From an uncultured delta proteobacterium (GTDB lineage Bacteria > Desulfobacterota > Desulfobacteria > Desulfobacterales > UBA2156), in contig CAVTQK010000023.1 of assembly GCA_963736855.1 (NCBI GenBank), forward strand, positions 92,195 through 156,194: a stretch of 64,000 nt of DNA, written 5' to 3'. A program made the position numbers and the translations under genes. Shown here piece by piece: positions 34,461 to 61,891 of this stretch. Every line of letters begins with the position of its first letter. Within the stretch, counting starts at the first letter, position 1. The notes below the pieces were generated by a model. That model ran no database searches. It saw only the letters and a list, made by a program, of their open reading frames with translations, and was not told the origin of the DNA.

Positions 34461-34472
34461 AGTAGGTTTCTT

Positions 34473-42491: not shown

Positions 42492-42507
42492 TGGCATATA
42501 TCTTGCT
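42492..42507 (+). promoter_or_regulatory. sigma54 promoter of the regulator/EPS operon
   Basis: TGGCAT-ATATC-TTGCT. Confidence 0.8.
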
Positions 42508-42549
42508 TCTCAGTTCCATCTGTTTATGAAAACATTACCATTCTGAATT

Positions 42550-46561: not shown

Positions 46562-46660
46562 GCACAAAAATAGGGAACGTCCACGATTTTATGCGTTTAT
46601 CGGCTGGATTTTGCTCTTTAATGTTGCGCTTTAAACTTCGAATTTCGAGCTTTTTTTTCT

Positions 46661-48057
46661 ATGCTTCGTTTATTTAAACAATACTATCCCATCCGCAATA
46701 TCTTCTTCGTGACCGGGGAGTTTCTGTTCATTTATTTTTCCGTTTATACGGCCAGTCTGATCCTTATGGGCGTTGACCGATACCTGAATGACCCATGGCT
46801 GTGGTTAAAGATTTTGATCATCGCCGTTTTTTGCCAGATCTGCCTTTATTACAATGATATGTACGATATTCGCAAGAGCATGAACTATCTCGAAATTGCT
46901 ATCCGGCTCATCCAAGCCCTGGGCGCAGCCTCCATCGGACTGGCCGTGGTCTATTTCATCTTTCCCGAAGCTATCATCGGAAACGGCGTCTTCATCGTCA
47001 GCATTTTTTTGATCATCTTTCTCATCATGGCCTGGCGCTTCTGCTACCAGCGTGTCCTCGAGCGCGGCCTTTTCGATCAGAAAGTGATCCTCTTGGGAAC
47101 CGGCTCCCTGGCTGAAGATATCGCAGCCGAAATTCACTCTAAAAAGGACTGCGGATATCGGATCAGCGCCCGGATTCTAGACAGCAACGCCGCCGACCCG
47201 GATCCCCAAGATCGAAGCGCCCACACGATCATCCAGAAAGGGTATGAAGGGATTTGCGCCATGGCGGAAGCCATGCGCATCAACAAAATAGTGGTGGCCA
47301 TGAAAGAGCGGCGCGGCGCCATACCGATCCGGGAGCTCTTGAAATGCCGCGTCTCCGGAATCGAGGTTCTGGAAGGGAACACCTTTTACGAGATGCTCAC
47401 CGGCAAGCTCCTGGTGGAGCACATCCAGCCGGGATGGCTCATCTTCACCGACGGTTTCCGGAAATCCCTGACTCGTCGGTTTGTCAAGCGCAGCATCGAC
47501 CTCCTGGCCGTCGCGATTCTGCTGATCATCCTGGCCCCCTTTTTTTTGATTATCGTCATACTGATCAAAATCGATTCCAAGGGGCCTGTCATTTTCTCCC
47601 AGTTGCGCGTGGGTAAGGGGCACACCCCCTACCGGATGCACAAATTCCGATCCATGATCGACAGCGCCGAAAAGATCTGCGGCCCGGTGTGGGCCCTGCA
47701 ACGACCCCCGGATCACCCGCGTGGGTCGTTATCTGCGCAAGTGTCGCCTCGACGAGCTGCCCCAGCTCTGGAACGTTCTCAAAGGCGAAATGAGCTTCGT
47801 GGGTCCTCGGCCGGAGCGGGAGCATTTCGTGAAACAACTGGAAGAGAGGGTCCCCTTCTACCGGGAACGGTTCACCGTCAAACCCGGCATCACCGGTTGG
47901 GCCCAGGTCAGCTTACGGTTACGGCGCCTCTGTGAAAGATGCCATGGAAAAACTCAATTACGATCTTTTTTACATCAAGAACATGTCCGTCTGGATGGAT
48001 CTTCTGATCCTATTCAAAACGGTAAAGACTGTCCTGTTTGCCAAAGGATCCCGATAA
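46661..48057 (+). CDS. Priming glycosylphosphotransferase of the PEP-CTERM/XrtA-associated type, frameshifted
   Basis: [39 protein letters not shown]. Confidence 0.9.
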
Positions 48058-48161
48058 CCGGACAGAAGCGGGCGAACGCCCAGTTTGTAACAAAATATTA
48101 ACGATTACAGTAAATTGTATCGAATCCGGTCATGGAATCGACAGGGCGGAGCTGTATCAGT

Positions 48162-48338
48162 GGGCAGAAAAGAAGTTCGAAGTTAGAAGTTAGAAGTTCG
48201 AAGTTGTGGAAAAAAAGAATGTTTAGAGAAAGAAGTTCGAAGTTCGAAGTGATAAGTTCGAAGTTAACAAACAGGAGTCAGAAGACAGATGTCGGATGTC
48301 AGAAAGAGCAAGAAAGTTCGAAGTGATAAGTTGTGGAA
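48162..48338 (-). repeat. Heptamer repeat block, inverted relative to all later blocks
   Basis: GAAGTTC GAAGTTC GAAGTGATAAGTTC arrays. Confidence 0.9.
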
Positions 48339-48363
48339 TATTGACTATAAGAAAGGAACATCG

Positions 48364-48963
48364 ATGAAAACCGCATTCTGGGCCCTCCTGGCAGCGGCAT
48401 TCCTGACCGCGGGAACCGCTGGTTACGCCGCTGAAACCTCTTCAATCCCCTCCACAACCGAAACCGCCGGTAAAATAAAGGATGACTATCTGATCGAGGT
48501 CGGCGACGTTCTCGAAATCCTCACCTGGAAAGAACCTGAATTCACCCGCGAAGTCATCGTCCGTTCAGACGGAAAGATCACCTTCCCGCTCCTCGATGAC
48601 CTCCCGGCAGCCGGATTGCCTCCCATGGAATTGAAAAAAATCATTGAAACCGGATTGAAAAAATTCGTCTCGGATCCCATGGTCACCGTCATCGTGAAAC
48701 TACCCATCGTGCCGAAGTTTTACATCTTAGGTGAAGTACAAAAAACCGGCGAATATCCCCTGACCAAAGGATTAACGGCTCTCCAGGCCTTCGCCCTTGC
48801 CGGAGGCTTCACCGAATGGGCTTCTGAGAAACGAATCGTCGTCATGCGCCGGATCGACGGCCAGGAAACCATCTTCAACGTCAATTATAAAAACATCGTC
48901 AAGGGAAAAGACCTCAGCCAGAATATCCTGGTCCGGCCCGGCGACACAATTATTGTCCCTTAG
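48364..48963 (+). CDS. Polysaccharide export protein (Wza/OPX family)
   Basis: Y.I..GDVL, VRSDGKITFPL, ILGEV..G.Y, AGGFT..A. Confidence 0.93.
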   Translation: MKTAFWALLAAAFLTAGTAGYAAETSSIPSTTETAGKIKDDYLIEVGDVLEILTWKEPEFTREVIVRSDGKITFPLLDDLPAAGLPPMELKKIIETGLKKFVSDPMVTVIVKLPIVPKFYILGEVQKTGEYPLTKGLTALQAFALAGGFTEWASEKRIVVMRRIDGQETIFNVNYKNIVKGKDLSQNILVRPGDTIIVP

Positions 48964-48983
48964 GAACAGATGTCAAAAGCCCT

Positions 48984-49018
48984 TCGAACTTTGAACTTGT
49001 AACTTTTAACTTCTAACT
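48984..49018 (+). repeat. Short heptamer repeat block
   Basis: TTCGAAC TTTGAAC TTGTAAC TTTTAAC TTCTAAC. Confidence 0.8.
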
Positions 49019-49023
49019 CATAA

Positions 49024-50346
49024 ATGCCGATGCCTAAAAAATTAAACCGAATCCCGATCCTTCTCCTCCTCGCTGTTATGCTGGGCGCAGCCCCCCCTGC
49101 CGACGCCCTCCAGCTTGCCTTCACCCCCCGTTTTTACACCGGCGAGGAATACAACGACAACGTCTATCTCACCAACAACGAAGAAGAAGAGGACTTCATC
49201 ACCACCGCCGGCGCCGGATTCACCCTGAAAGCCTCCGGCAAACACAGCACCCTCACCCTCGACTATGACCCCAAATACCAATATTTCTCTGAACTGACGG
49301 ACTTAAGTTTCTGGGAGCACAAGGCAAGCTTCTCACTTGAATCAAAACTGACTCGGCAGACCAAGCTCAAAATCGCCGACCGCTATGGTTACACCGAAGA
49401 CCCGTTCTTCGTCACCGACGTGGTCATCACCGAATTCAAAGGTATAAAAAAAGTGGACTACACGGTGCGCAAAGATCGCGTCCCTTACACCACCAACACC
49501 GCCTCCGCCACGCTCACCCATGAAACCCAGGCGAAAAACACCATCGAGTTCAGCCACCTCTACTCCCTTTTGAAAAATGATGATGAGGAACTCGAAGACA
49601 ACGAGCGGCATCAGCCTTCCCTTGAACTTCAATACAAGCTCACCCCGCATAACAGCCTCGATCTCTTACTCCAGTATACCCGCGGCGATTTCGAGGTCTC
49701 AGAAGACATGGACCGTTACGAAGGCGACCTGAAATGGACCCGAAACCTCTCAACCACCCTCGATGCCTACCTGGATTACAACCATATCTACACGGATTTC
49801 TACCGGGAGGAGACCGGTTACCAGGTCTATAATCCGAGCGTCGGCATCGTCAGTAAGCTGGGAAAACAGACGGAGCTGACCCTGGGGGGCGGATTTTTCT
49901 ATCAGGACAAAGGGGCAGCCGGCAGCGAATCCGGCCCTTCCGCCGATTTGGAATTCAAACACGCCTTCGAGCGGGGAACTTTTTCGCTGACCGGCTCCTA
50001 TGGATCGGATGAAACCTATTTCGGAACCGAAAACCTGGGCTTGAGCCTCTCCTATGACGCAGGTCTGCGCTTCTCCTACCAGCTCCTGGAGCGACTCTTT
50101 TTCAACATCGGCGGCACCTACAGCAGGGACGAATACAAGGATCTGGAAGAGCCCCGCATCGACGACATCTATCAAGCCGACTGCGGTCTCACCTACGTCC
50201 CGTCCTTTTTCAAATGGGCCGTCTTCAGCCTGAATTACATATTACGCAACCTCGATTCCACCGATCCCGAAAAGGTCTACGCCAACAGCCGTGTGATCTT
50301 CCGGATCACCCTGACCCCGGAGCGCCCTTACAAGAAAAACCTCTAA
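49024..50346 (+). CDS. EPS-associated outer-membrane beta-barrel protein
   Basis: Signal peptide, EEYNDNV, alternating aromatic beta-strands; follows wza. Confidence 0.82.
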   Translation: MPMPKKLNRIPILLLLAVMLGAAPPADALQLAFTPRFYTGEEYNDNVYLTNNEEEEDFITTAGAGFTLKASGKHSTLTLDYDPKYQYFSELTDLSFWEHKASFSLESKLTRQTKLKIADRYGYTEDPFFVTDVVITEFKGIKKVDYTVRKDRVPYTTNTASATLTHETQAKNTIEFSHLYSLLKNDDEELEDNERHQPSLELQYKLTPHNSLDLLLQYTRGDFEVSEDMDRYEGDLKWTRNLSTTLDAYLDYNHIYTDFYREETGYQVYNPSVGIVSKLGKQTELTLGGGFFYQDKGAAGSESGPSADLEFKHAFERGTFSLTGSYGSDETYFGTENLGLSLSYDAGLRFSYQLLERLFFNIGGTYSRDEYKDLEEPRIDDIYQADCGLTYVPSFFKWAVFSLNYILRNLDSTDPEKVYANSRVIFRITLTPERPYKKNL

Positions 50347-50500
50347 CTTCTGTTCCTACTACTTCAAACTTATCACTTAAAACTTCTTAAAATGACTTTT
50401 TCCACAACTTTGAACTTATCACTTCGAACTTCGAACTTCTCAAATGCCCTCATTCCACAACTTCGAACTTATCACTTCGAACTTCGAACTTCTTTCTCTC
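50346..50500 (+). repeat. Heptamer repeat block
   Basis: TTCCACAAC-TTCGAAC-TTATCAC-TTCGAAC units. Confidence 0.9.
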
Positions 50501-50525
50501 TTCCCTCTACCCCACAGATGCAGAT

Positions 50526-50554
50526 TTGACACGGGGCTGCACCAAGTCTATAAT
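50526..50554 (+). promoter_or_regulatory. Perfect sigma70 promoter
   Basis: TTGACA-17 nt-TATAAT; ATG follows after a 7-nt gap. Confidence 0.85.
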
Positions 50555-50561
50555 CAACGCC

Positions 50562-51002
50562 ATGATCAAACATTATAAACTACCTGAAAATATCGACCGC
50601 CTGCTGCCCAAAGCAACGGCTTACCTGAGATCCCATAAAGCCATCCTTTTCGCTTATCTTTTTGGCTCACTCGCTCAGGGAAAACGAAGCCCTCTAAGCG
50701 ATGTGGATATCGCCGTCTTTTTAAAAAAAACGAAGAAAGCACCCGCACTCAAAATGGAGATCCTGGGGAAGCTCAATGAACTTTTGAAAACCGATGAAAT
50801 CGACCTGGTGATCCTCAATACCGCACCGCCTCCACTCCGCATGCGAATCCTTCAAACCAAAAAGCTTCTGGTCGATAAGGACCCTTTTTTAAGGCATCGA
50901 TACGAATCGTTGACGATGCGTGAATACATGGATTTCTCGGTATTCGAATCGACCCTTCTTCACAGGAGGTTCTCCATTGGTAGACAAGTCGCTCGTTCTT
51001 AG
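50562..51002 (+). CDS. mntA: MNT antitoxin (type VII TA)
   Basis: YLFGS-x10-DVD, IDLVILN. Confidence 0.9.
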   Translation: MIKHYKLPENIDRLLPKATAYLRSHKAILFAYLFGSLAQGKRSPLSDVDIAVFLKKTKKAPALKMEILGKLNELLKTDEIDLVILNTAPPPLRMRILQTKKLLVDKDPFLRHRYESLTMREYMDFSVFESTLLHRRFSIGRQVARS

Positions 51003-51399
51003 AAAAATAGCCGAATTGGAGATTCACCTGAACCAAATTAATGAATTTTCCAATATAACCGTTAAAAAGTATCTTGAGGATTGGAAGGCACAGCGCGTTA
51101 TCGAAAGAACTCTTCAAATGATGATCGAAATTTGTATGGATATCGCAAGCCACCTCATCTCGGATAAAGGTTACAGAACGCCACAAACATACGCGGACAC
51201 CTTTAAAGTGCTTTATGAAAATAAAATCATCAATAAATCCCTTACCGCTAAAATGGAGAACATGGCCAAGTTCAGAAACGTTATTGTCCATTCCTATGAC
51301 AAAATCGATGCCACCATCGTCGTAAACATATTGAAAAATAACCTTAAAGACTTTGCACGTTTCAAGGAAACCATCATCCGGTTCACCCAGACCCAATAG
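50977..51399 (+). CDS. hepT: HEPN (DUF86) RNase toxin
   Basis: RNVIVHSY (Rx4HxY); AGGAGG before TTG start. Confidence 0.9.
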   Translation: MVDKSLVLRKIAELEIHLNQINEFSNITVKKYLEDWKAQRVIERTLQMMIEICMDIASHLISDKGYRTPQTYADTFKVLYENKIINKSLTAKMENMAKFRNVIVHSYDKIDATIVVNILKNNLKDFARFKETIIRFTQTQ

Positions 51400-51419
51400 A
51401 CTCAATGGCCCATTTACTC

Positions 51420-51580
51420 CCTCGAACCCTATTCTTTTCACTTTGAACTTCTTTCTCTCTGACTTCTGCCATCTGACCTCTGACCTCTGATTCTCAACTT
51501 TTAACTTCTTTCTCAAAATGCTCTCATTCCACAACTTCGAACTTCGAACTTGTAACTTCGAACTTCTTTCTGCCCTCTGG
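51420..51580 (+). repeat. Heptamer repeat block
   Basis: TCTGACC and TTCGAAC arrays. Confidence 0.9.
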
Positions 51581-51584
51581 CCCC

Positions 51585-51621
51585 TTGACACGCATTCTTT
51601 AATGTTATACGATGTATAACA
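51585..51621 (+). promoter_or_regulatory. sigma70 promoter with palindromic operator
   Basis: TTGACA-17-TACGAT; TGTTATAC-GAT-GTATAACA over the -10. Confidence 0.8.
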
Positions 51622-51637
51622 AAAGGGACCGTTCAAT

Positions 51638-51850
51638 ATGATTGCACTCAGATTAGACAAGGAAATCGAGCAGGCTTTGGATCAAATCGCCCGGGCCCGG
51701 GGAGGCACCCGCAGTTCTGTGGTAAGGGAGGCGATCCTCAAATACCTGGAAGATCAGGAGGATCTGGATCTGATTGAACACGCTCAATCCGTTTCACGAG
51801 GCAGAAAGCCGTTGAAACAGTTGAGAGAAGAGCTTGGCCTGGACCGTTGA
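51638..51850 (+). CDS. relB: Ribbon-helix-helix (RelB-like) antitoxin
   Basis: IALRL..E....L..IA......S.VVREAI..YLED.ED. Confidence 0.85.
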   Translation: MIALRLDKEIEQALDQIARARGGTRSSVVREAILKYLEDQEDLDLIEHAQSVSRGRKPLKQLREELGLDR

Positions 51851-52106
51851 AATCAGCGACCTCGCAGAACGTCAGTTGCGTAAACTTGATCGACCGATTC
51901 AAAGACGCATTCTTGACTGGCTCAACGACCGAATTGAAGGATGCAAAAACCCGCGGCATTTTGGGGAACCCCTGAGGGGCTCGCACGCCGGTTTCTGGAG
52001 GTATCGAATCGGGGATTTTAGGATTCTTTGCGACATCCAGGACCAAAAAGTGATCGTCCTGGTTTTGGCCATCGGCCATCGCAGCGAAATCTACAAACAT
52101 TCATGA
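51834..52106 (+). CDS. relE: RelE/ParE-family toxin
   Basis: G.PL.G...GFWRYRIGDFRI..IGHRSEIY. Confidence 0.92.
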   Translation: MAWTVEISDLAERQLRKLDRPIQRRILDWLNDRIEGCKNPRHFGEPLRGSHAGFWRYRIGDFRILCDIQDQKVIVLVLAIGHRSEIYKHS

Positions 52107-52144
52107 TCCCCCTTCGAACCTCGAACTTCGAACTTCTTTTCTCC

Positions 52145-52182
52145 TTGACCCGATCCTCCAATTGTATTATTCTTACCGGTAA
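52145..52182 (+). promoter_or_regulatory. sigma70 promoter after short repeat block 52112..52143
   Basis: TTGACC-17-TATTCT; palindrome TTACCGGTAA. Confidence 0.7.
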
Positions 52183-52206
52183 TATCATTACAATGGGGGA
52201 AAACAC

Positions 52207-52434
52207 ATGCGCGTTACGGTGAAGGGACAAGTCACCATTCCACAACATATCCGGGAAAAGCTGGGCATCACCCCTGCAACCGAAATCGATTTCATCGAGC
52301 AAAAAGGGCGCGTTTATATTGTCCGAAAAGCAAGCAACAAAAAGTCCGGCGGAAAGTTTCGGAAATTGCGAGGGACGGCAACGGTCCGGATGACCACAGA
52401 AGAAATCATGAAATTAACCCGGACGGATGTATGA
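52207..52434 (+). CDS. vapB: AbrB/MazE-type antitoxin
   Basis: VTVKGQVTIP..IR..LGI. Confidence 0.9.
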   Translation: MRVTVKGQVTIPQHIREKLGITPATEIDFIEQKGRVYIVRKASNKKSGGKFRKLRGTATVRMTTEEIMKLTRTDV

Positions 52435-52850
52435 AAGGCGTTATCGTCGATTCGAATATCATCCTGGATCTCGTCACCGACGACCCCAAATGGGCCGATT
52501 GGTCCGAATCCATACTTGACAAACTTACTGACTCCTCACGACTGTTCATCAATTTTGTGATCTATTCTGAAATATCGATTGCCTTTGAACGAATTGAAGA
52601 CTTGGAAGCCACCCTGAACGCGTCCGGTTTCGAAATGCTCGACATTCCCAAAGAAGCGCTATTTTTAGCCGGGAAGGCGTTTTATCGATACAAAAATCGT
52701 CAAGGTGTCAAGCGATCACCGTTGCCCGATTTTTATATCGGCGCCCAGGCGGCAGTCATGGACCTCGATCTCGTTACACGTGATATCAAGAGATACCAGG
52801 CCTACTTCCCCACAGTCCATCTGATTGCTCCTCTGGCATCTGACCCCTGA
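52431..52850 (+). CDS. vapC: PIN-domain toxin
   Basis: VDSNII.D, YSE, LPDFYIGA.A, LVTRD. Confidence 0.92.
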   Translation: MKGVIVDSNIILDLVTDDPKWADWSESILDKLTDSSRLFINFVIYSEISIAFERIEDLEATLNASGFEMLDIPKEALFLAGKAFYRYKNRQGVKRSPLPDFYIGAQAAVMDLDLVTRDIKRYQAYFPTVHLIAPLASDP

Positions 52851-53048
52851 CTTCTGCTCCTCCACTTCGAACTTAAGGCACTTCGAACTTGTAACTTCGA
52901 ACTTTTTTCTTAAAATGCTCTCTTCCACAACTTCGAACTTCGAACTTATCACTTCGAACTTCTTTCTTAAAATGCTCTCATTCCACAACTTCGAACTTCG
53001 AACTTATCACTTCGAACTTCTTTCTGCCCCCTGACTTCTGCTTTCTTC
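52831..53048 (+). repeat. Heptamer repeat block
   Basis: Repeated AAAATGCTCTC.TTCCACAACTTCGAACTTCGAACTTATCACTTCGAACTTC units. Confidence 0.92.
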
Positions 53049-53097
53049 TTGACTTCCCCGCAATTTTGTTATACAGTTTCCTTAAAAACGTATAACA
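53049..53097 (+). promoter_or_regulatory. sigma70 promoter with inverted-repeat operator
   Basis: TTGACT-17-TACAGT; TGTTATAC-15 nt-GTATAACA. Confidence 0.75.
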
Positions 53098-53109
53098 CTT
53101 GGAGGCTTT

Positions 53110-53379
53110 ATGGGTGCTTCCCAAAGAGAAATCGTAACTGTCTCCCCCAAGGGTTGGGTCGTCATCCCCTCCTTATTGCGGAGAAAAATCGGCTTAAAAC
53201 CCGGAATGAGGATTAAGGTTACGGAGACAGACGGCAAAATCCTTCTCACACCTCAAATAGATGACCCGGTGGATGCACTTTACGGCAAGCTTGGAAAGGG
53301 TAAATCTCTCACCAAATCGCTTCTGGCAGAACGGAAACGGGAAAGAATCCGTGAACAAGCCAAAATACATCCTCGATAG
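53110..53379 (+). CDS. vapB: AbrB-type antitoxin
   Basis: VSPKGWVVIP..LR...GLKPG. Confidence 0.88.
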   Translation: MGASQREIVTVSPKGWVVIPSLLRRKIGLKPGMRIKVTETDGKILLTPQIDDPVDALYGKLGKGKSLTKSLLAERKRERIREQAKIHPR

Positions 53380-53507
53380 CTATGCTTTGCTCGCCTATTT
53401 TCAAGGCGAGCCGGCAGGGGAAAAAGTGCGGGATATCCTCAAAAACGCATCGAAGGGTTCTGTTTCGGTTTATCTGTCGGTGATCAGCCTGGGAGAAATT
53501 TATTACA
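53351..53507 (+). pseudogene. vapC: PIN toxin, 3'-truncated
   Basis: YILDSYALLAYFQGE...S.ISLGEIYY then abrupt change into the next gene. Confidence 0.82.
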
Positions 53508-53744
53508 ATGATTTTAAAACCTAAATTTATCCGGCTGAATGGGACGAAACCGCAAAGACATGGTGGCAACCAGTGATGATGTACCCGGTTTAGCTACTGA
53601 AGCCGACACGCTTGAAAATCTTGTCGAGAAGTTAAAAATAATGATTCCGAGAGCTTAGAAGCCAATGGTTTTCAGAATATATCAGAAATTCCTTTCGAAA
53701 TCCTAACCCGCCGCTTTGAGATTGCCCGGCTCCAAGCCGATTAG
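53508..53744 (+). pseudogene. DUF1902/HicB-like antitoxin, frameshifted
   Basis: AEWDE.A / VATSDDVPGLATEADTLE.L..KL..MIP recoverable across frames. Confidence 0.75.
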
Positions 53745-53938
53745 TGTCTGATTATACACCGCGATTAAAGCAAATTTTGAGAGATGCAGGGTGCAATTTT
53801 GAACGCCACGGGAAAGGGGATCATGAGCTCTGGTATAGCCCTATAACCGGAATTCGATTTGTGATAGACAGTCAGATAAAATCCCGACACACCGCAAATG
53901 CTGTGTTAAAGCAGGCGGGGCTCCCTAAGAAATTCTAA
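53744..53938 (+). CDS. hicA: HicA-family toxin
   Basis: G..F.R.GKGDHE.W, HTAN.VLKQAGL. Confidence 0.88.
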   Translation: MSDYTPRLKQILRDAGCNFERHGKGDHELWYSPITGIRFVIDSQIKSRHTANAVLKQAGLPKKF

Positions 53939-53945
53939 GGTGTTT

Positions 53946-54130
53946 TTCTGCCCTCTCTGCTCTTTCACTTTGAACTTCGAACTTATCACTTCGAACTTCT
54001 TTCTCAAAATGCTCTCATTCCACAACTTCGAACTTCGAACTTTTCACTTCGAACTTCTTAAAATGCTCTCATTCCACAACTTCGAACTTCGAACTTATAA
54101 CTTCGAACTTCTTTCTAGCTTTCCAGCCTT
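53946..54130 (+). repeat. Heptamer repeat block
   Basis: Tandem ~51-56 bp higher-order units. Confidence 0.92.
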
Positions 54131-54165
54131 CAGGACTGGTGCCCTGCACCCAATCCAAATTATGC

Positions 54166-54194
54166 TTGACGTAACGCATAAACAGCATTAAAAT
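54166..54194 (+). promoter_or_regulatory. sigma70 promoter of higBA
   Basis: TTGACG-17-TAAAAT; ATG follows after a 5-nt gap. Confidence 0.8.
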
Positions 54195-54199
54195 CGTTT

Positions 54200-54481
54200 A
54201 TGATTGTCAATTTCCGGGACAAACGGACTCAGAGATTCGCAGAGGGAAGAAAGATAAAAGCGTTTTCCGGATTCAAACTCAAAGCCGAAATAAAACTCGA
54301 TCAGCTTGATGCCGCCATTTCTTTGTTTGATTTGGATTTACCCGGGAACCACCTTGAAGCTTTAAAAGGGGAACGCAAGGGTCAATACAGTATCCGTATC
54401 AATGATCAATGGCGGATCTGCTTCGAATGGCCGAAAGGATCTTCAGGTCCGGTTGACGTGGAGATCGTAGATTATCACTGA
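54200..54481 (+). CDS. higB: HigB toxin
   Basis: PGN.LEALKG.RKGQYSIRINDQWRICF, IVDYH. Confidence 0.95.
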   Translation: MIVNFRDKRTQRFAEGRKIKAFSGFKLKAEIKLDQLDAAISLFDLDLPGNHLEALKGERKGQYSIRINDQWRICFEWPKGSSGPVDVEIVDYH

Positions 54482-54488
54482 AAGGAAA

Positions 54489-54809
54489 ATGATGGGACGC
54501 AGTGCCATACATCCGGGTAAGCACCTTGTGGAACAGCTCGAAGAATTAAATATGAGCGCCGCCGAATTGGCCCGCAAGCTTGAGGTGCCTACGAATCGTA
54601 TTACCGAAATCATCAACGGCCGGCGCACGATCACCGGCGATACCGCGCTTCGTTTAGGTCATTTCTTCGGAACGAGTGCAGAATTTTGGATGAACCTTCA
54701 AAAACTTTATGAATTGCGCCTGGCGGAGCAAAAATCGGGAAGAAATATCAAAACCTTGCCGACCCTTGCCGAATCCGCAAAGCATCGAAACTCAGAACTC
54801 CATATCTAA
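54489..54809 (+). CDS. higA: HigA antitoxin
   Basis: HPG..L, RI.EI.NG.R.IT.DTALRL..FFG.S.EFW.NLQ. Confidence 0.95.
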   Translation: MMGRSAIHPGKHLVEQLEELNMSAAELARKLEVPTNRITEIINGRRTITGDTALRLGHFFGTSAEFWMNLQKLYELRLAEQKSGRNIKTLPTLAESAKHRNSELHI

Positions 54810-54872
54810 ATTGAAAAAGCAGAACAGATCCACTACAATATATACAAAAACCCTTTCGAATGAGGTTTTGCC

Positions 54873-55103
54873 ATGAAATTTCAAAGAATTACTATGGATC
54901 CCGAAAAGATGGACGGGGTGGCCTGTATCCGGGGACTTCGAATCCCGGTAGCCACAGTTGTCGGCATGGTTGCCGAAGGGATGACTGAAAAAGAAATCCT
55001 GGAATCCTATCCGGACTTAAATGTCGAAGATATCAGGGAATCGCTTCATTATGCGGCTGAGGCGCTTCGTGAAAAGACGCTTCCTCTTGCTGCCATCGCA
55101 TGA
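54873..55103 (+). CDS. DUF433 antitoxin
   Basis: M.G..CIRG.RIPV, I...YPDL..EDI; promoter TTGAAA-17-TACAAT at 54811-54839. Confidence 0.9.
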
Positions 55104-55222
55104 AGTTCCTGATCGATAACGCACTCTCCCCGAAGATTTCGGATGTTTTGAGGTCTCACGGATTCGATGCCGTTCATGTCCGAGAGTATGGAATTCAGGA
55201 TGCTACAGATGAGGCCATTTTC
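55100..55222 (+). pseudogene. DUF5615 PIN-like toxin truncated by a repeat block
   Basis: [19 protein letters not shown] then runs directly into the repeat unit. Confidence 0.85.
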
Positions 55223-55505
55223 TCAAAATGCCCTCACTCCTCAACTTCGAACTTCGAACTTATCACTTCGAACTTCTTTTTCTAAACATTTTTCTTTCCA
55301 CAACTTCGAACTTCGAACTTATCACTTCGAACTTCTTTCTGGCTTTCCAGCTTCCCGGCTTTCTGGTTTCTGGCTTCCCAGCTTCCACAATTTTGAACTT
55401 CTTTCTCAAAATGCGCCCATTCCACAACTTTGAACTTGTCACTTCGAACTTCGAACTTTTATTCTGACCTTCTTCTGGCTATCCGACTTCCTGACTCCTG
55501 ACTTC
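55219..55505 (+). repeat. Heptamer repeat block
   Basis: TTCGAAC, (T/C)(G/A)GCTTC and TCTGAC arrays. Confidence 0.92.
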
Positions 55506-55572
55506 TTGACATCTACGGATAAAAGGTATACCCTAATTCAAAAAGCGTATACCCTTAAAAGAGGAACCTGAA

Positions 55573-55794
55573 ATGGCCAAGGTCACCGGTAAATACCAGA
55601 TCACTCTGCCTCCTTCCGTCCGTAAATTCTTAAAAATCGTGCCGGGCGTGGAGGTGGACATTGTAAAAGAGGGCCCGCACTTCATTCTTGTCGTCGATCC
55701 CAATTCCCGAATCCGAAAAAAATGGGCCGGAAAGATGAAGGATAGTGAAAAAACCATGGATTACATCGATCGGATCCGGGGGCCTGTACATTGA
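55573..55794 (+). CDS. vapB: AbrB-type antitoxin
   Basis: KVT.KYQITLP..VR..L.I.PG; promoter TTGACA-17-TACCCT at 55506-55534. Confidence 0.88.
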   Translation: MAKVTGKYQITLPPSVRKFLKIVPGVEVDIVKEGPHFILVVDPNSRIRKKWAGKMKDSEKTMDYIDRIRGPVH

Positions 55795-56231
55795 AAATCT
55801 GCGTGGATACGACGATTCTGATCGACATCCTTAAAAATGAGAACCCGGAATACCATGAAAAGCTTTACCTGGCATTGCAGCGAAATGAAACACTTTTGGC
55901 ACCGGTCATCGTTTATGGTGAGTTGATCCCTCTGTTCCATAAAGACATGCCGATGCTCGATGAATTCCTCAAAGATCACCGGATTACGATCAAGCCCATC
56001 GAAATCCCTTCGATAACCGAGGCGGCCGCACGATGGATGGAATACCTGGAACGTAAACAGAAAATGAAATGCCCCCACTGCCGGCGGGTCTTAGAACATA
56101 GAGCCCATTTTTTGTCCGATTTCTTAATCGGCGGGTTTGCATCCGCGGAATGCGACGCCATCCTGACCCGCGACCGCGGCATCTACAAAACCTATTTCCC
56201 GAAACTCAAAGGATACGAGCACTGCCTTTAA
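55791..56231 (+). CDS. vapC: PIN-domain toxin with CxxC insertion
   Basis: VDT.ILID, YGEL, DFLIG, LTRD; KCPHC insert. Confidence 0.88.
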   Translation: MKICVDTTILIDILKNENPEYHEKLYLALQRNETLLAPVIVYGELIPLFHKDMPMLDEFLKDHRITIKPIEIPSITEAAARWMEYLERKQKMKCPHCRRVLEHRAHFLSDFLIGGFASAECDAILTRDRGIYKTYFPKLKGYEHCL

Positions 56232-56309
56232 ACTTCTTTTTTCTGGCCTCATGGCTTCCGGCTTCTTGACCCGTTTCGCCAATCGTGTTAAAATTTTTAA
56301 AAAAAGGAC

Positions 56310-56654
56310 ATGGCCAGACATCATAAAGAGGTACAAACAATGAAGCACCGCAGGATACGTATGTAGCCTATGCCTCAGCTTGACATTGCCAGCCAGGGGG
56401 AAACGATTGAAAAAGCCCGTAAAACCTGACAGAAGCATTAGAATTGTTTTTTGAACATGCATCTGATCCAGAAATTCAACATCGTTTGCACACTGAAATC
56501 TTCATAACTCCTGTTGGAGGCCATTTCGTGGTGCGAACTGGGCAGATACAACAATCACAATCCGCGTTCCCAACCATGCGGAAATTAAAACCGGCACACT
56601 TCATTCGATTATCCGCCAATCTCAACTGACAAAAGCCTTTTTGAAGTGGATTAA
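56310..56654 (+). pseudogene. Decayed hicB-hicA pair
   Basis: PQLDIASQGETIEKAR / LTEALELFFE (HicB) and VPNHAEIKTGTLHSIIRQS (HicA end); promoter TTGACC-17-TAAAAT at 56266-56294. Confidence 0.75.
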
Positions 56655-56685
56655 ATTGAGGACCTCTCAATCTTTTCATCCACCC

Positions 56686-56860
56686 AGCCGCCTGGCTTTT
56701 TTTCTCAAACTTTCTTCTCTGCCTTCTGACCTCTGACATCTGAATTCTGACATCTGTTCCTGATACTTCGAACTTATCACTTCGAACTTCTTAAAATGAC
56801 CTTCTTCCACAACTTTGAACTTATCACTTCGAACTTCGAACTTCTTTTCTGCCCTCTTCC
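56686..56860 (+). repeat. Heptamer repeat block
   Basis: TCTGAC(C/A) then TTCGAAC arrays. Confidence 0.9.
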
Positions 56861-56939
56861 TTACACTCTTGCTTTTATAATTGAACTCAAATAAAATAAC
56901 ATTATACAAGGCCAAACTCCGGATGAGCAAAAATCCGTT

Positions 56940-57060
56940 TGGGAGAAATCTCAAAGAAGCCATCGAATTGCACTTCGAAGATGATCCCGAGGAATTAGAA
57001 GGGTATGTACCATCACCGTCTATCTTTTCGATGATGGATTTAGGACAGCTTCATGTCTGA
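56940..57060 (+). pseudogene. HicB C-terminal remnant
   Basis: RNLKEAIELHFEDD..P..F..M. Confidence 0.6.
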
Positions 57061-57079
57061 AAAATTACTGGGAGGCACC

Positions 57080-57298
57080 ATGAAATTCAAGGTAGTAATA
57101 ACATACGACTCTGAATACGATGGTTATGTAGTCGATGTACCGGAACTCGTCGGCTGCATGAGCCAAGGAAGAACGATCGATGAAGCCTTAAGAAATGTCA
57201 AAGATGCAATTAAAGGTTGGTTGGAAGTGGAAAAAAAACATAACCGACTGGATCTTATAGAAGAAAGGGAGGTCTTTTTGGGCGAGGTTACTGTTTAA
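57080..57298 (+). CDS. hicB: HicB antitoxin
   Basis: GY.V.VPEL.GC.SQG.T.DEAL.N.KDAI. Confidence 0.92.
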   Translation: MKFKVVITYDSEYDGYVVDVPELVGCMSQGRTIDEALRNVKDAIKGWLEVEKKHNRLDLIEEREVFLGEVTV

Positions 57299-57516
57299 TG
57301 GGGATACTTTCAAACATTTCGGGTCATGACGCTGTTAGAATTTTTAAGAAGTTCGGTTATACCCTCGACCATCAAACGGGCAGCCATATGATGCTTTACC
57401 ATGATTCCAGGCCAACTTTATCTATTCCCGACCTTAAAGAATTGGCGCCCGGATTACTCAGAGGGTTGATAAGAAAAAGCGGTTTAACTGTTCATGACTT
57501 TTTGAAAGAAAAATGA
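57298..57516 (+). CDS. hicA: HicA toxin
   Basis: SG..A...F.K.G....Q.GSH, EL..G.L..LIR.SG. Confidence 0.9.
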   Translation: MGILSNISGHDAVRIFKKFGYTLDHQTGSHMMLYHDSRPTLSIPDLKELAPGLLRGLIRKSGLTVHDFLKEK

Positions 57517-57562
57517 TCCCTCCTGCTACCTATCGATTGCCAGTAAGGAGGCTTTCGGAAAC

Positions 57563-57635
57563 ATGAATAAACTGATCGAAATCAACCATGAAATTATGCT
57601 GGGAAAGCCTATAATTAAAGGGACACGAATTCCTG
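57563..57635 (+). pseudogene. DUF433 N-terminal remnant
   Basis: AGGAGG RBS then MNKLIEINHEIMLGKPIIKGTRIP, abruptly cut. Confidence 0.72.
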
Positions 57636-57656
57636 GTATTTTCAAGGAGAGTTTTA

Positions 57657-57887
57657 ATGGAAACATATACCGTTATAAAAAAAGGCTCACAAATCAAACG
57701 TTGTATTCAGATTCCTAAGGAATATTTGGAAAAAGAACTCGAAATTACGATTAAACCCCATAAACCGAAACAAAATATAAGTAAAAAGCTTGCTAAGCTT
57801 TATAAAAAATACAAGGATTTAAATCCGTTTCAATCGATGAAAGACCCCGGTGCATGGCAGCGTGAGGCAAGACGTGGCTGGGAATAG
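57657..57887 (+). CDS. Putative antitoxin
   Basis: C-terminal DP..WQRE.R..W; overlaps the start of a PIN gene. Confidence 0.7.
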   Translation: METYTVIKKGSQIKRCIQIPKEYLEKELEITIKPHKPKQNISKKLAKLYKKYKDLNPFQSMKDPGAWQREARRGWE

Positions 57888-58261
57888 AGCTCTGTTTGAC
57901 AGCAATATCATCATTTATTTATCCAAAAGAGCACTTCCTTTCTCATTTATCGACAAATTTTATGATCATTTTATTTCCGTTAAAATTGATGAACTCGTAA
58001 AAAGTCGAAAATCAGATGGCAAAGTAAAAAGTTCAAGTTCAAGGCGTCGCGAATCCCGTGTGATGAGGCGTACTTATCGTACGTCGAAATCGCAACGGGA
58101 TGAAGCGCAACGCAGAAATTGGACTTTTTACAAAGCCATCAAAATTGCCTGATGCGATAATAGACGCAACAGCAATGGTCAACGAATTATTTCTGGTAAC
58201 AAGGAATATTGATGATTTTAAAAATATCGACGTAAATGTTAACAACCCTTTTGATAAATAG
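57874..58261 (+). pseudogene. vapC: PIN toxin, internally deleted and interrupted by a MITE
   Basis: LFDSNIIIY..ISV before and KLPDAII.ATA..LVTRN.DDF..NPF after the insertion. Confidence 0.82.
57988..58140. mobile_element. MITE-like element, family A copy 2, flanked by AAAATT direct repeats
   Basis: GATGAACTCGTAAAAAGTC ... GACTTTTTACAAAGCCATC; AAAATT at 57982-57987 and 58141-58146. Confidence 0.85.
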
Positions 58262-58264
58262 CCC

Positions 58265-58541
58265 CATTGGTGTCCAAAATAAATCAAAATTCGGCTTTTT
58301 GGACAGATAAGTATTTGATTTAATTCAATGCCTCATGGAAATGTAAATTCAGGTTGTCTTTTCCTTCAGATGCTGTCCAAGAACTGCACGGGTTAGACAA
58401 CATGGCAGAAAGCACCTTCCGGATGCTTGAAAAGCCTTGAAACAGGCCTGTTCGGATTTGTTTCAGGGGCCAAAAGATAGGATTTTGTTTTCAAAGGGTT
58501 CAAATGCTGTCCAAATAAAAAACCGATTTTGGACAATAGTG
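58265..58541. mobile_element. 277-bp MITE with 9-bp target-site duplication
   Basis: CATTGGTGTCCAAAAT ... ATTTTGGACAATAGTG; AAATAGCCC at 58256-58264 and 58542-58550. Confidence 0.8.
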
Positions 58542-58589
58542 AAATAGCCCCTATTATTTCAATCGAACACAAAATTCAACCTCCTGTTC

Positions 58590-58755
58590 TTCCAACTTCG
58601 AACTTGCCACTTCGAACTTCTTAAAATGACCTCTTCCACAACTTCGAACTTCGAACTTATCACTTCGAACTTCTTTTGCCCTCTGACATCTGACTTTTGA
58701 CATCTGACATCTGTTCCTGATACTTCGAACTTCTTTCTCCGTCCTCTGATTCTTT
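58590..58755 (+). repeat. Heptamer repeat block
   Basis: TTCGAAC and TCTGACA arrays. Confidence 0.9.
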
Positions 58756-58843
58756 CTATTTAAACCCTGTTGTTGCAAAAGCTGAGGATGTCCCAGACCT
58801 AAGGCGTCCAAGGGCAAAGCCGTAATATTTTGCTACGATCATT

Positions 58844-58942
58844 GAGACCTTTGAAAAACTAGTTAAACTACCTATGCTGCACTTGTAACATATTGAAATT
58901 ATTGAATCTTCAATTTTAATATTCGCAAAATTCAAAGGTCTC
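58844..58942. mobile_element. 99-bp element with 12-bp perfect inverted ends (IS5/IS1106-like)
   Basis: GAGACCTTTGAA ... TTCAAAGGTCTC. Confidence 0.6.
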
Positions 58943-59045
58943 CCATTGGCAACGAGGGTAAATTTTCGCTTGATATTTGCCTTTAACTTTGAGAAATAAT
59001 ACATAATTTGATATCATCTGATCGACCAATTTTTAGAGGCAGTAG

Positions 59046-59285
59046 ATGAAATATTCCGAATACATCACCATAGATCCGGGGCTTTGTGGAGGGCAACCGA
59101 TAATCAAGGGTACGCGCGTAACCCTCAAGACGCTCCTTGCCTGTCTTGCCGAAGGAGCAACCGTGGATGAAATTTTGACAGATTTCCCGTCACTCAATAA
59201 ATCCCAGGTTCAAGCCGTCATAGCATTTGCCGCGGCTTCGGCTCAAGAGGATCTGCCCATACCTGAAACCCCTGAAGTTGTATGA
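59046..59285 (+). CDS. DUF433 antitoxin
   Basis: I..DP..C.GQP.IKGTRV, IL.DFP.L. Confidence 0.9.
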   Translation: MKYSEYITIDPGLCGGQPIIKGTRVTLKTLLACLAEGATVDEILTDFPSLNKSQVQAVIAFAAASAQEDLPIPETPEVV

Positions 59286-59638
59286 AAATCAAGATTGATG
59301 AAAATTTACCGGCAAGCCTTGCCCTTTATTTTAATAATTGTGGTCATGACGCCGATACGGTCTATTCTGAGGGGCTCATAGGATGCAAAGACACTGTTTT
59401 ATGGGAAAATTGCAAAAAAAATCGGCAGTTTTTGATAACCCAAGATTTGGATTTTTCGGATCGGCGCAAATTTTTACCAGGAACCCATGAAGGTATATTG
59501 ATTGTGAGATTCAAGGATCCGGGGCGGATCGCAGTCAAAAGAAAGCTCTTAGCAATTTTTGAAAGTCAAAATATTTCCGAATGGGAATCATGTTTCGTGG
59601 TTATCACTGAAACGAAGATAAGAATAACCCGGCCATAA
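59282..59638 (+). CDS. DUF5615 PIN-like toxin
   Basis: IDENLP, GHDA.TV, D..L, LITQDLDF, H.GI. Confidence 0.9.
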   Translation: MKIKIDENLPASLALYFNNCGHDADTVYSEGLIGCKDTVLWENCKKNRQFLITQDLDFSDRRKFLPGTHEGILIVRFKDPGRIAVKRKLLAIFESQNISEWESCFVVITETKIRITRP

Positions 59639-59649
59639 TATTGCTGTTT

Positions 59650-59720
59650 TAACTTCGAACTTCGAACTTATCACTTCGAACTTCTTTTGCCCTCTGACCT
59701 CTGACCTCTGACCTCTGCTC
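59650..59720 (+). repeat. Heptamer repeat block closing the TA array
   Basis: TTCGAAC and TCTGACC arrays ending just before the epimerase ATG. Confidence 0.9.
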
Positions 59721-59722
59721 TT

Positions 59723-60384
59723 ATGAAACTCTTACTCCCCGGCGGTAGTGGCTTCATCGGCACTTACCTCGCCTCCGACCTCCTCGAAGCCGGCCACCAC
59801 GTCACCATTTTCGACCGGCAACCCTCGGCTGCCCATCCGGACCGCTGCGTCCTAGGCGACATCCGCGACCTCCGGCCCTCACCCTTGCCTGCCGCGGCAT
59901 GGACGCCGTCATCCACCTTGCCGCCGCACACCGGGACGACGTCCGCCCCCCTTCCCTCTACTACGACGTCAACGTCACCGGCACCCAAAACATCGATCCA
60001 GGCCTGCATCCAAAACCGCATCCGACGCATCCTTTTCACCAGCACGGTTACCGTCTACGGTCTCGACGCCCGCCTTCCCGACGAAACCACCCCCCCAAAC
60101 CCCTTCAACGACTACGGCCGCAGCAAACTCCAGGCCGAAGCCCGTGCTCCGGCAATGGGCCTCCGCCGCCCCGGACCGCACCCTGGTCCTCATCCGCCCC
60201 ACCGTCATCTTCGGCGAAGGAAACCGCGGCAATGTCTACAACCTTCTCCGCCAGATCGTCTCCGGCCGCTTCGTCATGGTCGGCGACGGATCCAACCGAA
60301 AATCCATGGCCTATGTCCGCAACTTGACCCGATTCCTGACCCAAATGCTCGAAACACCCCCCGGCATCCACGTTTTCAACTACC
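59723..60384 (+). CDS. NAD-dependent epimerase/dehydratase, frameshifted and 3'-truncated
   Basis: GGSGFIG, VIHLAA.HRDD, YGRSK, IRPTVIFGEGNRGN. Confidence 0.88.
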
Positions 60385-60712
60385 CACAGCGGTGTGAACG
60401 TCAATAAGGTTAAGGCCGTCACCTTTGCGGTCAGTGCCTTTTTCATGGGCCTCGCCGGCGCGACCATGAGCATGCGGTGGAGCTACATCGATGCAACATC
60501 AGCCTTCAATATCCAGTTCTCTTTCATGCCTGTTCTGATGGCGATATTCGGCGGCATGGGACACCTCTATGCGCCTATCATGGGGGCGACCATTTTCTCT
60601 CTTCTCGAAGAAATACTCACAACCAGGTTTCCCTATTACTACATGCTCCTTTTCGGCTCCACCATGCTGGCGGTCATCCGGTTTATGCCGCACGGCCTGG
60701 AAGGGGGCATTC
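60385..60712 (+). other. C-terminal fragment of a LivM-type branched-chain amino acid ABC permease
   Basis: GVN..K...FA.SA...GLAG, .FGG.G....P..GA, P.GL.G. Confidence 0.75.
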
Positions 60713-60889
60713 GAGAATTCGTCTTCCTCAGCCACGAGAGCATGATACTCTTCACCGGAAGGGTCATAGAGATAGGCGTCAATGACTTCTTCAGCCACCA
60801 GACGATCGAGGTCGTTAAACTCCGGCGTATTTTGCAGAATCTTGCAGGACCGGGGGTTTATCTCCGGGAGTCATCGGTCGAATTTTCAT
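60713..60889 (-). other. N-terminal fragment of a GNAT acetyltransferase
   Basis: MKIRPMTPGDK..LQNTPEF....VAEEVID.YL..Y.ALVAE, immediately downstream of the ATP-grasp gene. Confidence 0.65.
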
Positions 60890-60894
60890 ATCAT

Positions 60895-61891
60895 TTATTG
60901 TAGAGCCAGACGCAGGATTTTGTCTATAAATTGGCTGTAGGTCAGACCGGCGGCAGTCAGCTTGCCGGGCGGCGCCGCTGCCGGGGGTAATATCCGGGTT
61001 AGGGTTGACTTCCAGCACGTAGAATTCACCCGGCTGGCCTTCTCGGAAGTCCACCCTGGCATAACCCCGGCAGCCGGTGATCCGGAAGGCGGCCTTGGCC
61101 AGTTTGGCGATATGGGCTTTCTCTCTGGCGGTGATTTGCGCCGGACATGGACTCTGGTGTTGATGTAATAGAGGCTGTCTTCATCCCATTTGGAAGCGAA
61201 AGTCAGAATACGCGGTTTGTCCGGCGGCAGGGTGTAAACAATCTCCGAGACAGCCGGAATAGTTAAACGCTTATTGCCCATCACCACGGTGTTAAATTCA
61301 CGGCCGTTCAGGAATTCTTCTACCAGAGCTCTGTCCGCCGAAGCCAGACGCAAATTTTTTCCACCTGTTTGTTCAAGTCACTCAAATTATACACGACGCT
61401 GTCTTCGGAAAGACCGTGGCTGGCGTCTTCAGTGACCGGTTTAACTAAACAGGGAAAAGTAAGGTTGAAAGTATTCAAGTTGGAAGGGTGTCAGAATCTG
61501 GATATCGGGGAGTTTTATGCCGGCCTCCGATAGCAGTTTTTTGGTCCGGGCTTTATCCAGGGCCAGATCCAGAGCGGACGCCGGACAGCCGGTAAAAGGC
61601 AATTTTAATTCCGCCAGCATCTCAGCGACACGGCCCTTCGGTCTCAGGGCTGCCGTCAAAGCCTTCAAAAAGATTAAAAACTACATCGGCCTTAATCAGC
61701 TGTAAGGCGCGTTTGACTTTGGTGAGAGGGGGCCGGAGGGGCATTAGAGACATAGTCATAATTCAGCTCTTCCAGAGCTCTGCTGACGGCCTTGACTTCA
61801 TCCATGACCCCCAGTTCGGCTTTAGACTCGCCCATCGCTGATAGCGGTCCGGCTGGGGATCATTATAGATAAGAGCTACTTTTAGCGGCAC
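60895..61891 (-). CDS. D-Ala-D-Ala ligase-like ATP-grasp protein 2 (multiple frameshifts)
   Basis: PFTG...L...LDK..TK, EDASHGL, LVEEFL.GREF, YARVDF, LEVNPNPD. Confidence 0.82.

Follow-up and report, generated by a model that had tools for sequence, protein, structure and literature searches.

Toxin-antitoxin operons among heptamer repeat blocks in a variable exopolysaccharide island of an uncultured desulfobacterial genome

Introduction

How toxin-antitoxin (TA) modules move and come to cluster, and what purpose heptanucleotide repeats serve, are two questions that meet at one locus in the genome of an uncultured delta proteobacterium of the order Desulfobacterales (UBA2156). We analysed a window of 64,000 nucleotides of this genome (assembly GCA_963736855.1, contig CAVTQK010000023.1, positions 92,195 to 156,194), which is the final 64 kb of the contig, here called C23; the genome comprises 3.9 Mb in 25 contigs. 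The locus is unusually clean, with 13 unrelated TA units lying in a matrix of one repeat family inside a variable exopolysaccharide (EPS) island. A preliminary description, made from the letters alone, proposed that the repeat blocks are homology arms of an integron-like, integrase-free system that captures TA cassettes. Do the blocks gather the modules, or have both accumulated in the same place? Should the blocks do no more than supply homology, the locus would still illustrate how simple repeats can make a spacer a hot spot where selfish operons collect and decay. Should they instead be genuine landing sites, it would represent a new cassette system, in which heptamer repeats are attC-like pads that build addiction or defence arrays in surface-polysaccharide islands.

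TA clusters are already known, and so are heptamer repeats of the short tandemly repeated repetitive (STRR) type; what is new here is the TA array in heptamer blocks. To our knowledge, TA clusters have not been described as regularly spaced by a single locus-specific repeat family, and our literature search found no description of heptamer-delimited TA arrays.

Thirteen TA modules on one strand

By Pfam matches and supporting alignments, we counted 13 type II TA modules at 50.5-59.7 kb of the window, where the preliminary description had seen about 13. As it also stated, all of them are on the + strand and about half are decayed: seven look intact and six are truncated or frameshifted, some of the latter possibly through assembly error. 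At E ≤ 0.01, TA families were found by Pfam in 20 of the 25 open reading frames (ORFs) submitted from the array, and none in the other five. The modules are listed below.

50526..51399, +, MNT (Polbeta)/HepT (HEPN), intact-looking (Pfam 7.3e-22 and 7.2e-32)
51638..52106, +, ribbon-helix-helix (RHH) antitoxin/ParE toxin, intact-looking (Pfam; homologues elsewhere at 71-75% nucleotide identity)
52207..52850, +, AbrB-type antitoxin/PIN toxin, intact-looking (Pfam)
53110..53524, +, AbrB and a truncated PIN of ~50 residues (Pfam; PIN at 19.1 bits, under the Pfam cut-off)
53525..53938, +, frameshifted DUF1902/HicB-like piece and HicA (Pfam; indels relative to relatives)
54200..54809, +, HigB toxin/HigA (HTH_3) antitoxin, intact-looking (Pfam)
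54873..55232, +, DUF433 and a DUF5615 that ends at residue 44 of 110 (Pfam; spacer listing)
55573..56231, +, AbrB antitoxin/PIN toxin, intact-looking (Pfam)
~56301..56640, +, frameshifted HicB/HicA remains
57053..57516, +, HicB antitoxin/HicA toxin, intact-looking (Pfam)
57563..57718, +, DUF433 stub, profile positions 1-20 of 56 (Pfam)
57657-58261, +, decayed module of orf76 and a probable PIN-like gene (PIN-like part 57850..58261) split by a 157-nt repeat
59046..59638, +, DUF433/DUF5615 pair, intact-looking (Pfam 1e-22 and 1.1e-19)

The cut point of the DUF5615 gene at 54873-55232 coincides exactly with the start of a repeat unit. The PIN-like gene at 57850-58261 has a weak match to the C-terminus of PIN1 (50% over 26 amino acids, E=0.43), and neither it nor orf76 has a Pfam match.

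Predicted sigma-70-like sites (consensus matches only) precede nine modules, that of MNT/HepT matching the consensus at 12 of 12 positions (50526-50554), and the region holds 30 promoter-like sites against 16.1 ± 4.4 in shuffled sequences. Palindromic putative operators lie at 52158-52197, directly before the AbrB/PIN module at 52207-52850, and at 53067-53097 and 55522-55556. The genome is poor in TA genes, and about half of them are found here, with two of its four PIN matches, three of the five for DUF433 and two of the six for HicA.

A heptamer repeat family concentrated at the locus

The spacers hold one to three tandem composite units of 54-58 nt, each made of about five AACTTCG-type heptamers and a core, TTTCTCAAAATGCTCTCATTCCAC; the conserved non-heptamer core of the unit reads AAAAT-N7-TTCCWCAACTT. 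Heptamers of the CTCTGAC/TCTGACA type and a C-rich tail often precede or trail the units. The 34-nt core is present in 20 copies and the 83-93-nt composite in 8-12, and Tandem Repeats Finder (TRF) reports period 7 with 3.6-5.3 copies per run. The following blocks were recorded.

48163..48335, −, composite block in inverted orientation (GAAGTTC and TCAGAAG types), between the sugar transferase and Poly_export genes (TRF; minus-strand pattern matches)
48982..49018, +, short heptamer block between Poly_export and BBP2_2 (TRF)
50360..50500, +, repeat block of two units
51440..51575, +, repeat block of CTCTGAC heptamers and one AACTTCG unit
52112..52140, +, short repeat block
52864..53040, +, repeat block of 2.5 units of 58 nt (TRF score 262)
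53955..54125, +, repeat block of 2.6 units of 54 nt, 97% identical to 52930-53022
55215..55470, +, repeat blocks
56717..56853, +, repeat block of TCTGACA heptamers and AACTTCG units
58589..58742, +, repeat block
59646..59717, +, terminal repeat block, 94% identical to 58640-58706

One repeat family separates most modules, as had been noticed from the letters; four module junctions are without a clear block (53524/53525, 54809/54873, 56231/56301, where only a remnant is seen, and 57516/57563). The extent of 50346-59722 given earlier for the array fits the TA span but not the repeat field, which begins with the blocks at 48163-48335 and 48982-49018.

Genome-wide, 62 of the 72 matches to AACTT..[AC]ACTT fall at 48184-59665 of the window and eight more at a single locus on another contig (C15), and 25 of the 61 period-7 arrays that TRF finds in the genome lie in this 11.5 kb of 3.9 Mb. 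The AACTTCG family is therefore not spread evenly over intergenic regions, an even spread being one of the outcomes that the preliminary description had named as contrary to its proposal; heptamers of the YCTGAC type are more scattered over the genome. Two likenesses were considered and set aside. The block core is not a sigma-54 promoter, its GG-to-GC spacing being wrong by eye, and the resemblance to the Omega-type heptad (WATCACW) comes to one ATCAC per block, which we take as coincidence.

Unrelated modules between near-identical blocks

Modules of the same family within the array have no DNA similarity to one another, their best local alignments being 10-21 nt long, and their proteins are 18-38% identical or unmatched. 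The blocks are identical at up to 97% over 93 nt, 94% over 67 nt and 100% over 38 nt. This combination of unrelated paralogous cassettes with near-identical blocks indicates that the cassettes were acquired separately, and that the blocks were amplified or homogenised in place. In this respect the idea of self-contained, heterogeneous cassettes gains support.

A DNA search of 301 genomes of the order gave some match in 209, mostly to a 157-nt high-copy element described below. Homologues of single cassettes occur at 66-75% nucleotide identity in many of the 301 genomes, the array itself occurs in none of them, and cassette order is not conserved in relatives, as the proposal of gain, loss and shuffling had anticipated. 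When eight RHH/ParE loci were aligned, the similarity began at the -35 box and was lost no more than 15 nt beyond the stop codon, between unrelated flanks, which argues that the transferable unit is the bare operon and that the heptamers belong to the recipient locus.

One RHH/ParE homologue (L154, from G168:C8, at ~1400-2200 of L154) has a 12-nt direct repeat, AAAATACAAAAT, on its flanks and a GalE-type epimerase gene immediately downstream. Its placement echoes that of the TA module adjoining the epimerase gene in the window.

Alternative junctions in other samples

Three public sequencing runs, X1 (freshwater sediment), X2 (cave) and X3 (groundwater), contain 6-12% of the array's sampled words. 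Their contigs carry single cassettes at ~90-100% identity and show alternative junctions, all of them within repeats, which is where the preliminary description had expected breakpoints; most of these junctions rest on short contigs. The most reliable one comes from X3, in which a repeat block, and not DUF433, starts 27 nt beyond the 3′ end of HigA, the shorter side of the joint being 82 nt. The match to the DUF1902/HicA unit begins at 53507 in all three runs and ends at 53956 in X1 and X3, the only runs with listed pieces that reach as far as 53956, indicating that the unit has other neighbours there in X1-X3. One contig carries a 7-nt insertion (ACTTTGA) within a block, as slippage would leave. 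A joint in X1 from 50496 to 59688, considered as an empty site, has a 30-nt side in repeats and was not counted.

The repeat class in other phyla

Genome records were searched with a 33-nt IUPAC pattern of the heptamer array. AACTTYG arrays nearly identical to those of the window were found at 120 loci or more in many phyla, the records being labelled as Patescibacteria groups, Acidobacteriota, Verrucomicrobiota, Bacteroidales, Planctomycetota, Thermodesulfovibrionia, Chlorobiaceae, Chloroflexota, Cyanobacteria and others. At the 80 loci with flanks, none of the 150 ORFs within 250 nt of an array belonged to a classical TA family; two were 23S_rRNA_IVP (PF05635) genes and the others were largely housekeeping genes. 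The window has no PF05635 gene, and its blocks are direct, save the single inverted block on the left. Elsewhere in the genome (C21:557523-557747), a truncated PF05635 gene, at 29.3 bits and under the cut-off, lies between inverted CTGA-type arms (TCAGAAG.../...CTTCTGA) and fills the gap from the stop of one gene to the start of the next.

Arrays were located inside ORFs on the stop-free (antisense) strand at 23 of the 80 loci, with one further case on the sense strand. Nine array-bearing ORFs were translated; they are conserved enzymes of unrelated phyla, including HisH, NuoJ, chorismate synthase, TilS, UppS, GatC, LeuRS and a MurC-like ligase, and the in-frame arrays encode loops of the SSKFKVQ type. 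In-frame AACTTTG arrays were seen at L078:2783-3364 and L079:2785-3411, and also in L016, L028, L042, L043, L085, L087 and L091. In HisH of one gammaproteobacterial and one Ignavibacteria metagenome-assembled genome, the array insert sits in the same loop, past the GWNQ motif.

The same behaviour is described for TAACTGA repeats in Beggiatoaceae, Cyanobacteria and Bacteroidetes, with no evident mechanism (MacGregor 2015, PMC4679880). Like the STRR of cyanobacteria and the TAACTGA repeats, the arrays studied here consist of tandem 7-nt units in 2-6 or more copies, mixed with related heptamers; like them they are mostly intergenic, with some in ORFs on the stop-free strand, patchily distributed over phyla and altered by indels in 7-nt steps. 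They differ in their AACTTYG and YCTGAC units, in the 55-58-nt composites with a non-heptamer core and in their concentration at one locus. An association of TAACTGA repeats with TA arrays is not reported in the available part of that paper (PMC4679880), and the word 'toxin' occurs 0 times in the paper. On sequence grounds, the blocks belong to the STRR/TAACTGA class of heptamer repeats: they share its tandem, mixed, intergenic heptamers, its occurrence in distant phyla and its placement on the stop-free strand, but in the AACTTCG family not its dispersal over the genome.

Repetitive extragenic palindromic sequences (REP), bacterial interspersed mosaic elements (BIME), REPINs and the Rickettsia palindromic elements are comparable as short repeats that fill spacers, occur in frame within proteins and serve as substrates of recombination. 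Unlike the blocks, they are palindromic, and the RAYT transposases known to mobilise them have no demonstrated counterpart here.

Heptamer arrays outside the TA array

Within the window, blocks also divide ordinary EPS genes, namely Bac_transf, Poly_export and BBP2. The C15 locus is syntenic with a locus in another genus of the same family (G009), both having a PAS response regulator, an AAA_22 ATPase, the block, a GNAT acyltransferase and a LolA-like gene in this order; as the block occupies the syntenic spacer in two genera, it has long been present in this spacer, where no TA genes lie. A liv ABC-transporter operon of G009 is likewise bordered by blocks at each end. In a genome of the same genus (G003), the EPS island beside dinB holds BBP2_2, Poly_export, Wzz, Wzy_C, two PilZ, AAA_14, MNT and Phd/YefM genes, and its spacers carry ~10 arrays built from related heptamers (GTCAGAG, CAGAGGT, AAAGTTC and others).

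Another contig of the genome carries different heptamers beside TA genes (C18:25929-28493). Two direct arrays of 19 and 32 GGAGGAC/AGATGAC copies, each followed by the same ~240-nt stretch, enclose a Y1_Tnp+DnaA_C gene and a DUF433/DUF5615 pair, with an IS66 transposase gene and a BrnT toxin gene nearby. A RAYT/Y1 transposase was considered as the mobiliser of the blocks and rejected, since of the three Y1_Tnp matches in the genome one lies between these C18 arrays and none near the window or the C15 locus.

A TA array in a variable EPS island

The closest relative (G005) matches the window at 82-95% identity from 30000 to 39096 and has different genes beyond. The similarity stops just past dinB (36997-38178), at ~39.1 kb, and G+C content is 39-46% over 39000-43000 against 49-55% in the first 38 kb of the window. 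We take ~39.1 kb as the likely left edge of an island that reaches the contig end. At the other end, 59640-64000 has a match in none of five same-genus genomes, and the composition of the EPS island differs among the same-genus genomes compared. Since the similarity to G005 ends at ~39.1 kb, 59640-64000 is unmatched and the island of G003 differs, we place the TA array in a hypervariable EPS island adjoining dinB.

Probable joint accumulation of modules and repeats in one island

Based on the above results, we lean towards the reading that spacer-filling heptamer arrays and selfish TA operons have accumulated together in a hypervariable accessory EPS island, with the blocks as passive substrates of recombination, and we hold it to be somewhat probable. 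Autonomous type II TA operons, each extending from promoter and operator to stop codon, would have been acquired independently and kept by addiction. Arrays of the STRR/TAACTGA class would colonise intergenic gaps and expand in them, and would here have been amplified locally as composite units of 55-58 nt. With about 12 direct repeats of 55-150 nt at 70-100% identity, passive recombination, whether of the RecA type or by slippage, could then delete, duplicate or swap segments between relatives and truncate adjoining genes. This recombination, the order of events (arrays into spacers or TA units into arrays) and any benefit to the host are what we infer. The preliminary interpretation is partly supported, in that recombination concentrates at this locus and its cargo is modular. 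Chromosomal TA clusters in variable or defence islands are similar in that they, too, combine many type II pairs from several families, some of them decayed, in accessory DNA with a lower G+C content; unlike them, the array described here is regularly spaced by one locus-specific repeat family.

Several points weigh against this reading. The AACTTCG family is strikingly concentrated at the TA array; the C18 locus with its DUF433/DUF5615 and BrnT genes is a second TA locus bracketed by long direct heptamer arrays; a metagenome contig has a different HigBA module (44% and 39% identity) between the same composite blocks; and different heptamers lie near two RHH/ParE homologues from other genomes. 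Judging from the C18 locus, the HigBA contig and the RHH/ParE homologues, a real link between TA modules and heptamers is possible. In a small sample from the order, TRF finds period-7 arrays at 3 of 11 TA loci and at 2 of 8 control loci, those of the unrelated 157-nt element, so enrichment is not clear there and the link is weak. Moreover, we know of no mechanism by which heptamer arrays spread. Most of the junction evidence consists of short contigs with 30-nt sides in repeats, and such joints are weak because split alignments are expected inside repeats. Finally, contigs of relatives carry indels relative to the assembly in the DUF1902 piece, at 53532 and 53561 in three of three runs and at 53650 and 53654 in two of three, so part of the 'decay' may be assembly error, and some modules may have been classed falsely as decayed.

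Two unlikely alternatives: a dedicated cassette system or selected cis elements

One alternative takes the blocks for equivalents of attC sites or Vibrio cholerae repeats (VCRs), with the inverted block at 48163-48335 as an attI-like anchor. They would be the recombination sites of an undescribed, integrase-free system, run by an undescribed enzyme or by programmed homologous exchange, that moves promoter-to-stop TA operons and possibly EPS genes. We regard this as unlikely, although co-oriented, heterogeneous cassettes with a homogeneous repeat do resemble sedentary chromosomal integrons, and the blocks start 6-41 nt past the stop codons. TA loci are bracketed by direct arrays at C18 and on contig L139, arrays lie near a cassette in L155 and L157, and single cassettes appear with different flanks at 90-100% identity in the three other samples. 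However, the gap between a block and the promoter that follows it ranges between 9 and >300 nt, blocks are missing at the four junctions listed above, and they also split non-mobile EPS genes and occupy conserved non-TA sites. The heptamers lie outside the unit that different genomes have in common, TA genes are absent from the 150 cross-phylum neighbours of arrays, and the locus contains no candidate enzyme, a Y1 transposase standing beside arrays at C18 only. With blocks between EPS genes and at an orthologous non-TA site, and with a transferable unit free of heptamers, the TA-specific, integron-like capture of the preliminary description is not supported. Its homology-arm role for the repeats survives in part: the junctions of relatives do lie in repeats, but a dedicated capture device is unlikely.

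A comparably low probability is given to the blocks being selected cis elements, either heptad operators or insulators bound by protein, or RNA elements of untranslated regions that shield TA operons from read-through. The blocks do stand between operons with predicted promoters of their own, and no spacer has a predicted intrinsic terminator; the whole region yields 7 terminator-like sites, compared with 15.2 after shuffling. On plasmids, heptad arrays are bound by ribbon-helix-helix proteins. Cold-shock proteins are discussed in PMC4679880 as binders of heptamer repeats. The small hairpins of the blocks, ~10 bp only, fold better than shuffled sequence on the + strand (z of -1.7 to -4.6) as well as on the - strand (z of -4.4 to -8.3), but it is on the untranscribed strand that the structure is stronger. 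Arrays that lie between genes of the same direction favour, across phyla, the sense strand by 22 to 3; this bias is confounded, because on one strand AACTTTG brings a stop codon into all frames. The irregular number and spacing of the blocks and the tolerance of the same repeat class within proteins also argue against selected cis elements.

Integron integrases of the genome

The genome has four TIGR02249 matches over the 265-bit cut-off, with 441 bits at C21:744805-745752, 438 at C24:200981-201931, 416 at C22:4704-5633 and 338 at C13:157249-157968, three of them near contig ends; the cut-off was exceeded in none of 14 control genomes. Contig C23 has no TIGR02249 match. The preliminary description was thus right that the window lacks an integrase, but not for the genome at large. 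It had also named true attC sites, with an integrase gene elsewhere, as evidence against its proposal; such genes do exist elsewhere, all four of them, and attC-like sites were not found in the array.

After the C21 integrase come small ORFs in a co-oriented array that has attC-like inverted repeats, and a HicA gene lies within this stretch. AACTTCG heptamers are absent from the arrays beside the integron integrases of this genome, and self-BLAST around the integrase genes found no shared repeats. In the spacers of the TA array, a scan for arms of ≥12 nt at most 120 nt apart found no attC-sized inverted repeats, the only palindromes being operators; its reach is too short for pairs that flank whole modules, such as the 28-bp dif-like sites of XerCD, at which no search was aimed. 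A RYYYAAC...GTTRRRY and folding scan gave no strict sites in five regions; under relaxed settings it gave 43 genome-wide, unclustered even beside the integrase genes. Neither setting therefore counts against attC sites in the array.

The superintegron of Vibrio cholerae, with its VCR repeats and TA cassettes, exemplifies sedentary chromosomal integrons and clusters of attC sites lacking integron integrases (CALINs). Like these, the TA array has small, unrelated cassettes in one orientation, an integron trait, many of them TA pairs with their own promoters, and one homogeneous repeat family. Unlike them, its repeats are direct tandem heptamers without R/L boxes, without a 60-140-nt hairpin and without an adjacent integrase, and the real integrons of the genome do not use AACTTCG blocks. 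The evidence that the TA array is not an integron array is good but not final. That it is a decayed CALIN served by one of the integrases is very improbable, despite four integrase loci against none in the control genomes and a HicA gene in the C21 array, given a contig without integrase match, spacers with block hairpins of ~10 bp but no attC-sized inverted repeats, and integron-side arrays free of the heptamers.

Genes around the array

The TA array is flanked by the following genes.

48289..48963, +, Poly_export + SLBB polysaccharide export gene (Pfam 6.2e-21)
49024..50346, +, EPS-associated beta-barrel BBP2_2, left flank of the TA array (Pfam 3.5e-12)
59723..60397, +, NAD-dependent epimerase, frameshifted, right flank (two separated Epimerase stretches by Pfam)
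60394-60903, permease gene fragment (BPD_transp_2) after the epimerase (Pfam)

The BBP2 protein found no match in five same-genus genomes, in a search whose sensitivity was limited, as it missed a diverged BBP2_2 in G003. Rfam gave five chance-level matches on 46000-64000 at E≤1, none of them at gathering score. With regard to a possible role in phage defence, which the preliminary description had raised together with stabilisation of the EPS locus, PADLOC matched only 1 of 19 proteins, MNT, to the candidate system PDC-S09. Several island genes are broken into overlapping frames or fragments, namely Wzz/GNVR (44017-45596), the sugar transferase (46661-48101), the epimerase (59723-60397) and the D-Ala-D-Ala ligase Ddl (60895-62324); these splits could be real decay or assembly indels. 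A contig of another sample has one base fewer at 47913.

Other repeat elements in the window

57986..58142, strand not assigned, 157-nt high-copy element with inverted ends, unrelated to the heptamer blocks (~100 genome copies)

This element, which appears to split the PIN-like gene at 57850-58261, falls into two subfamilies, ~97% and ~79% identical, and has a partial copy at 38225-38354. Most of the 209 genomes of the order that gave a match contain it, at 78-98% identity. It has no Rfam match and, at 57986-58142, a depth of 150-600 with loose ends on both sides. A ~75-nt repeat at 58764-58838 has 13 further genome copies at 81-92%, and other-sample contigs end on either side of it. Two more stretches, at 39371-39569 (~200 nt) and 42170-42275 (~106 nt), are high-copy and match dozens of same-genus contigs at 85-97%.

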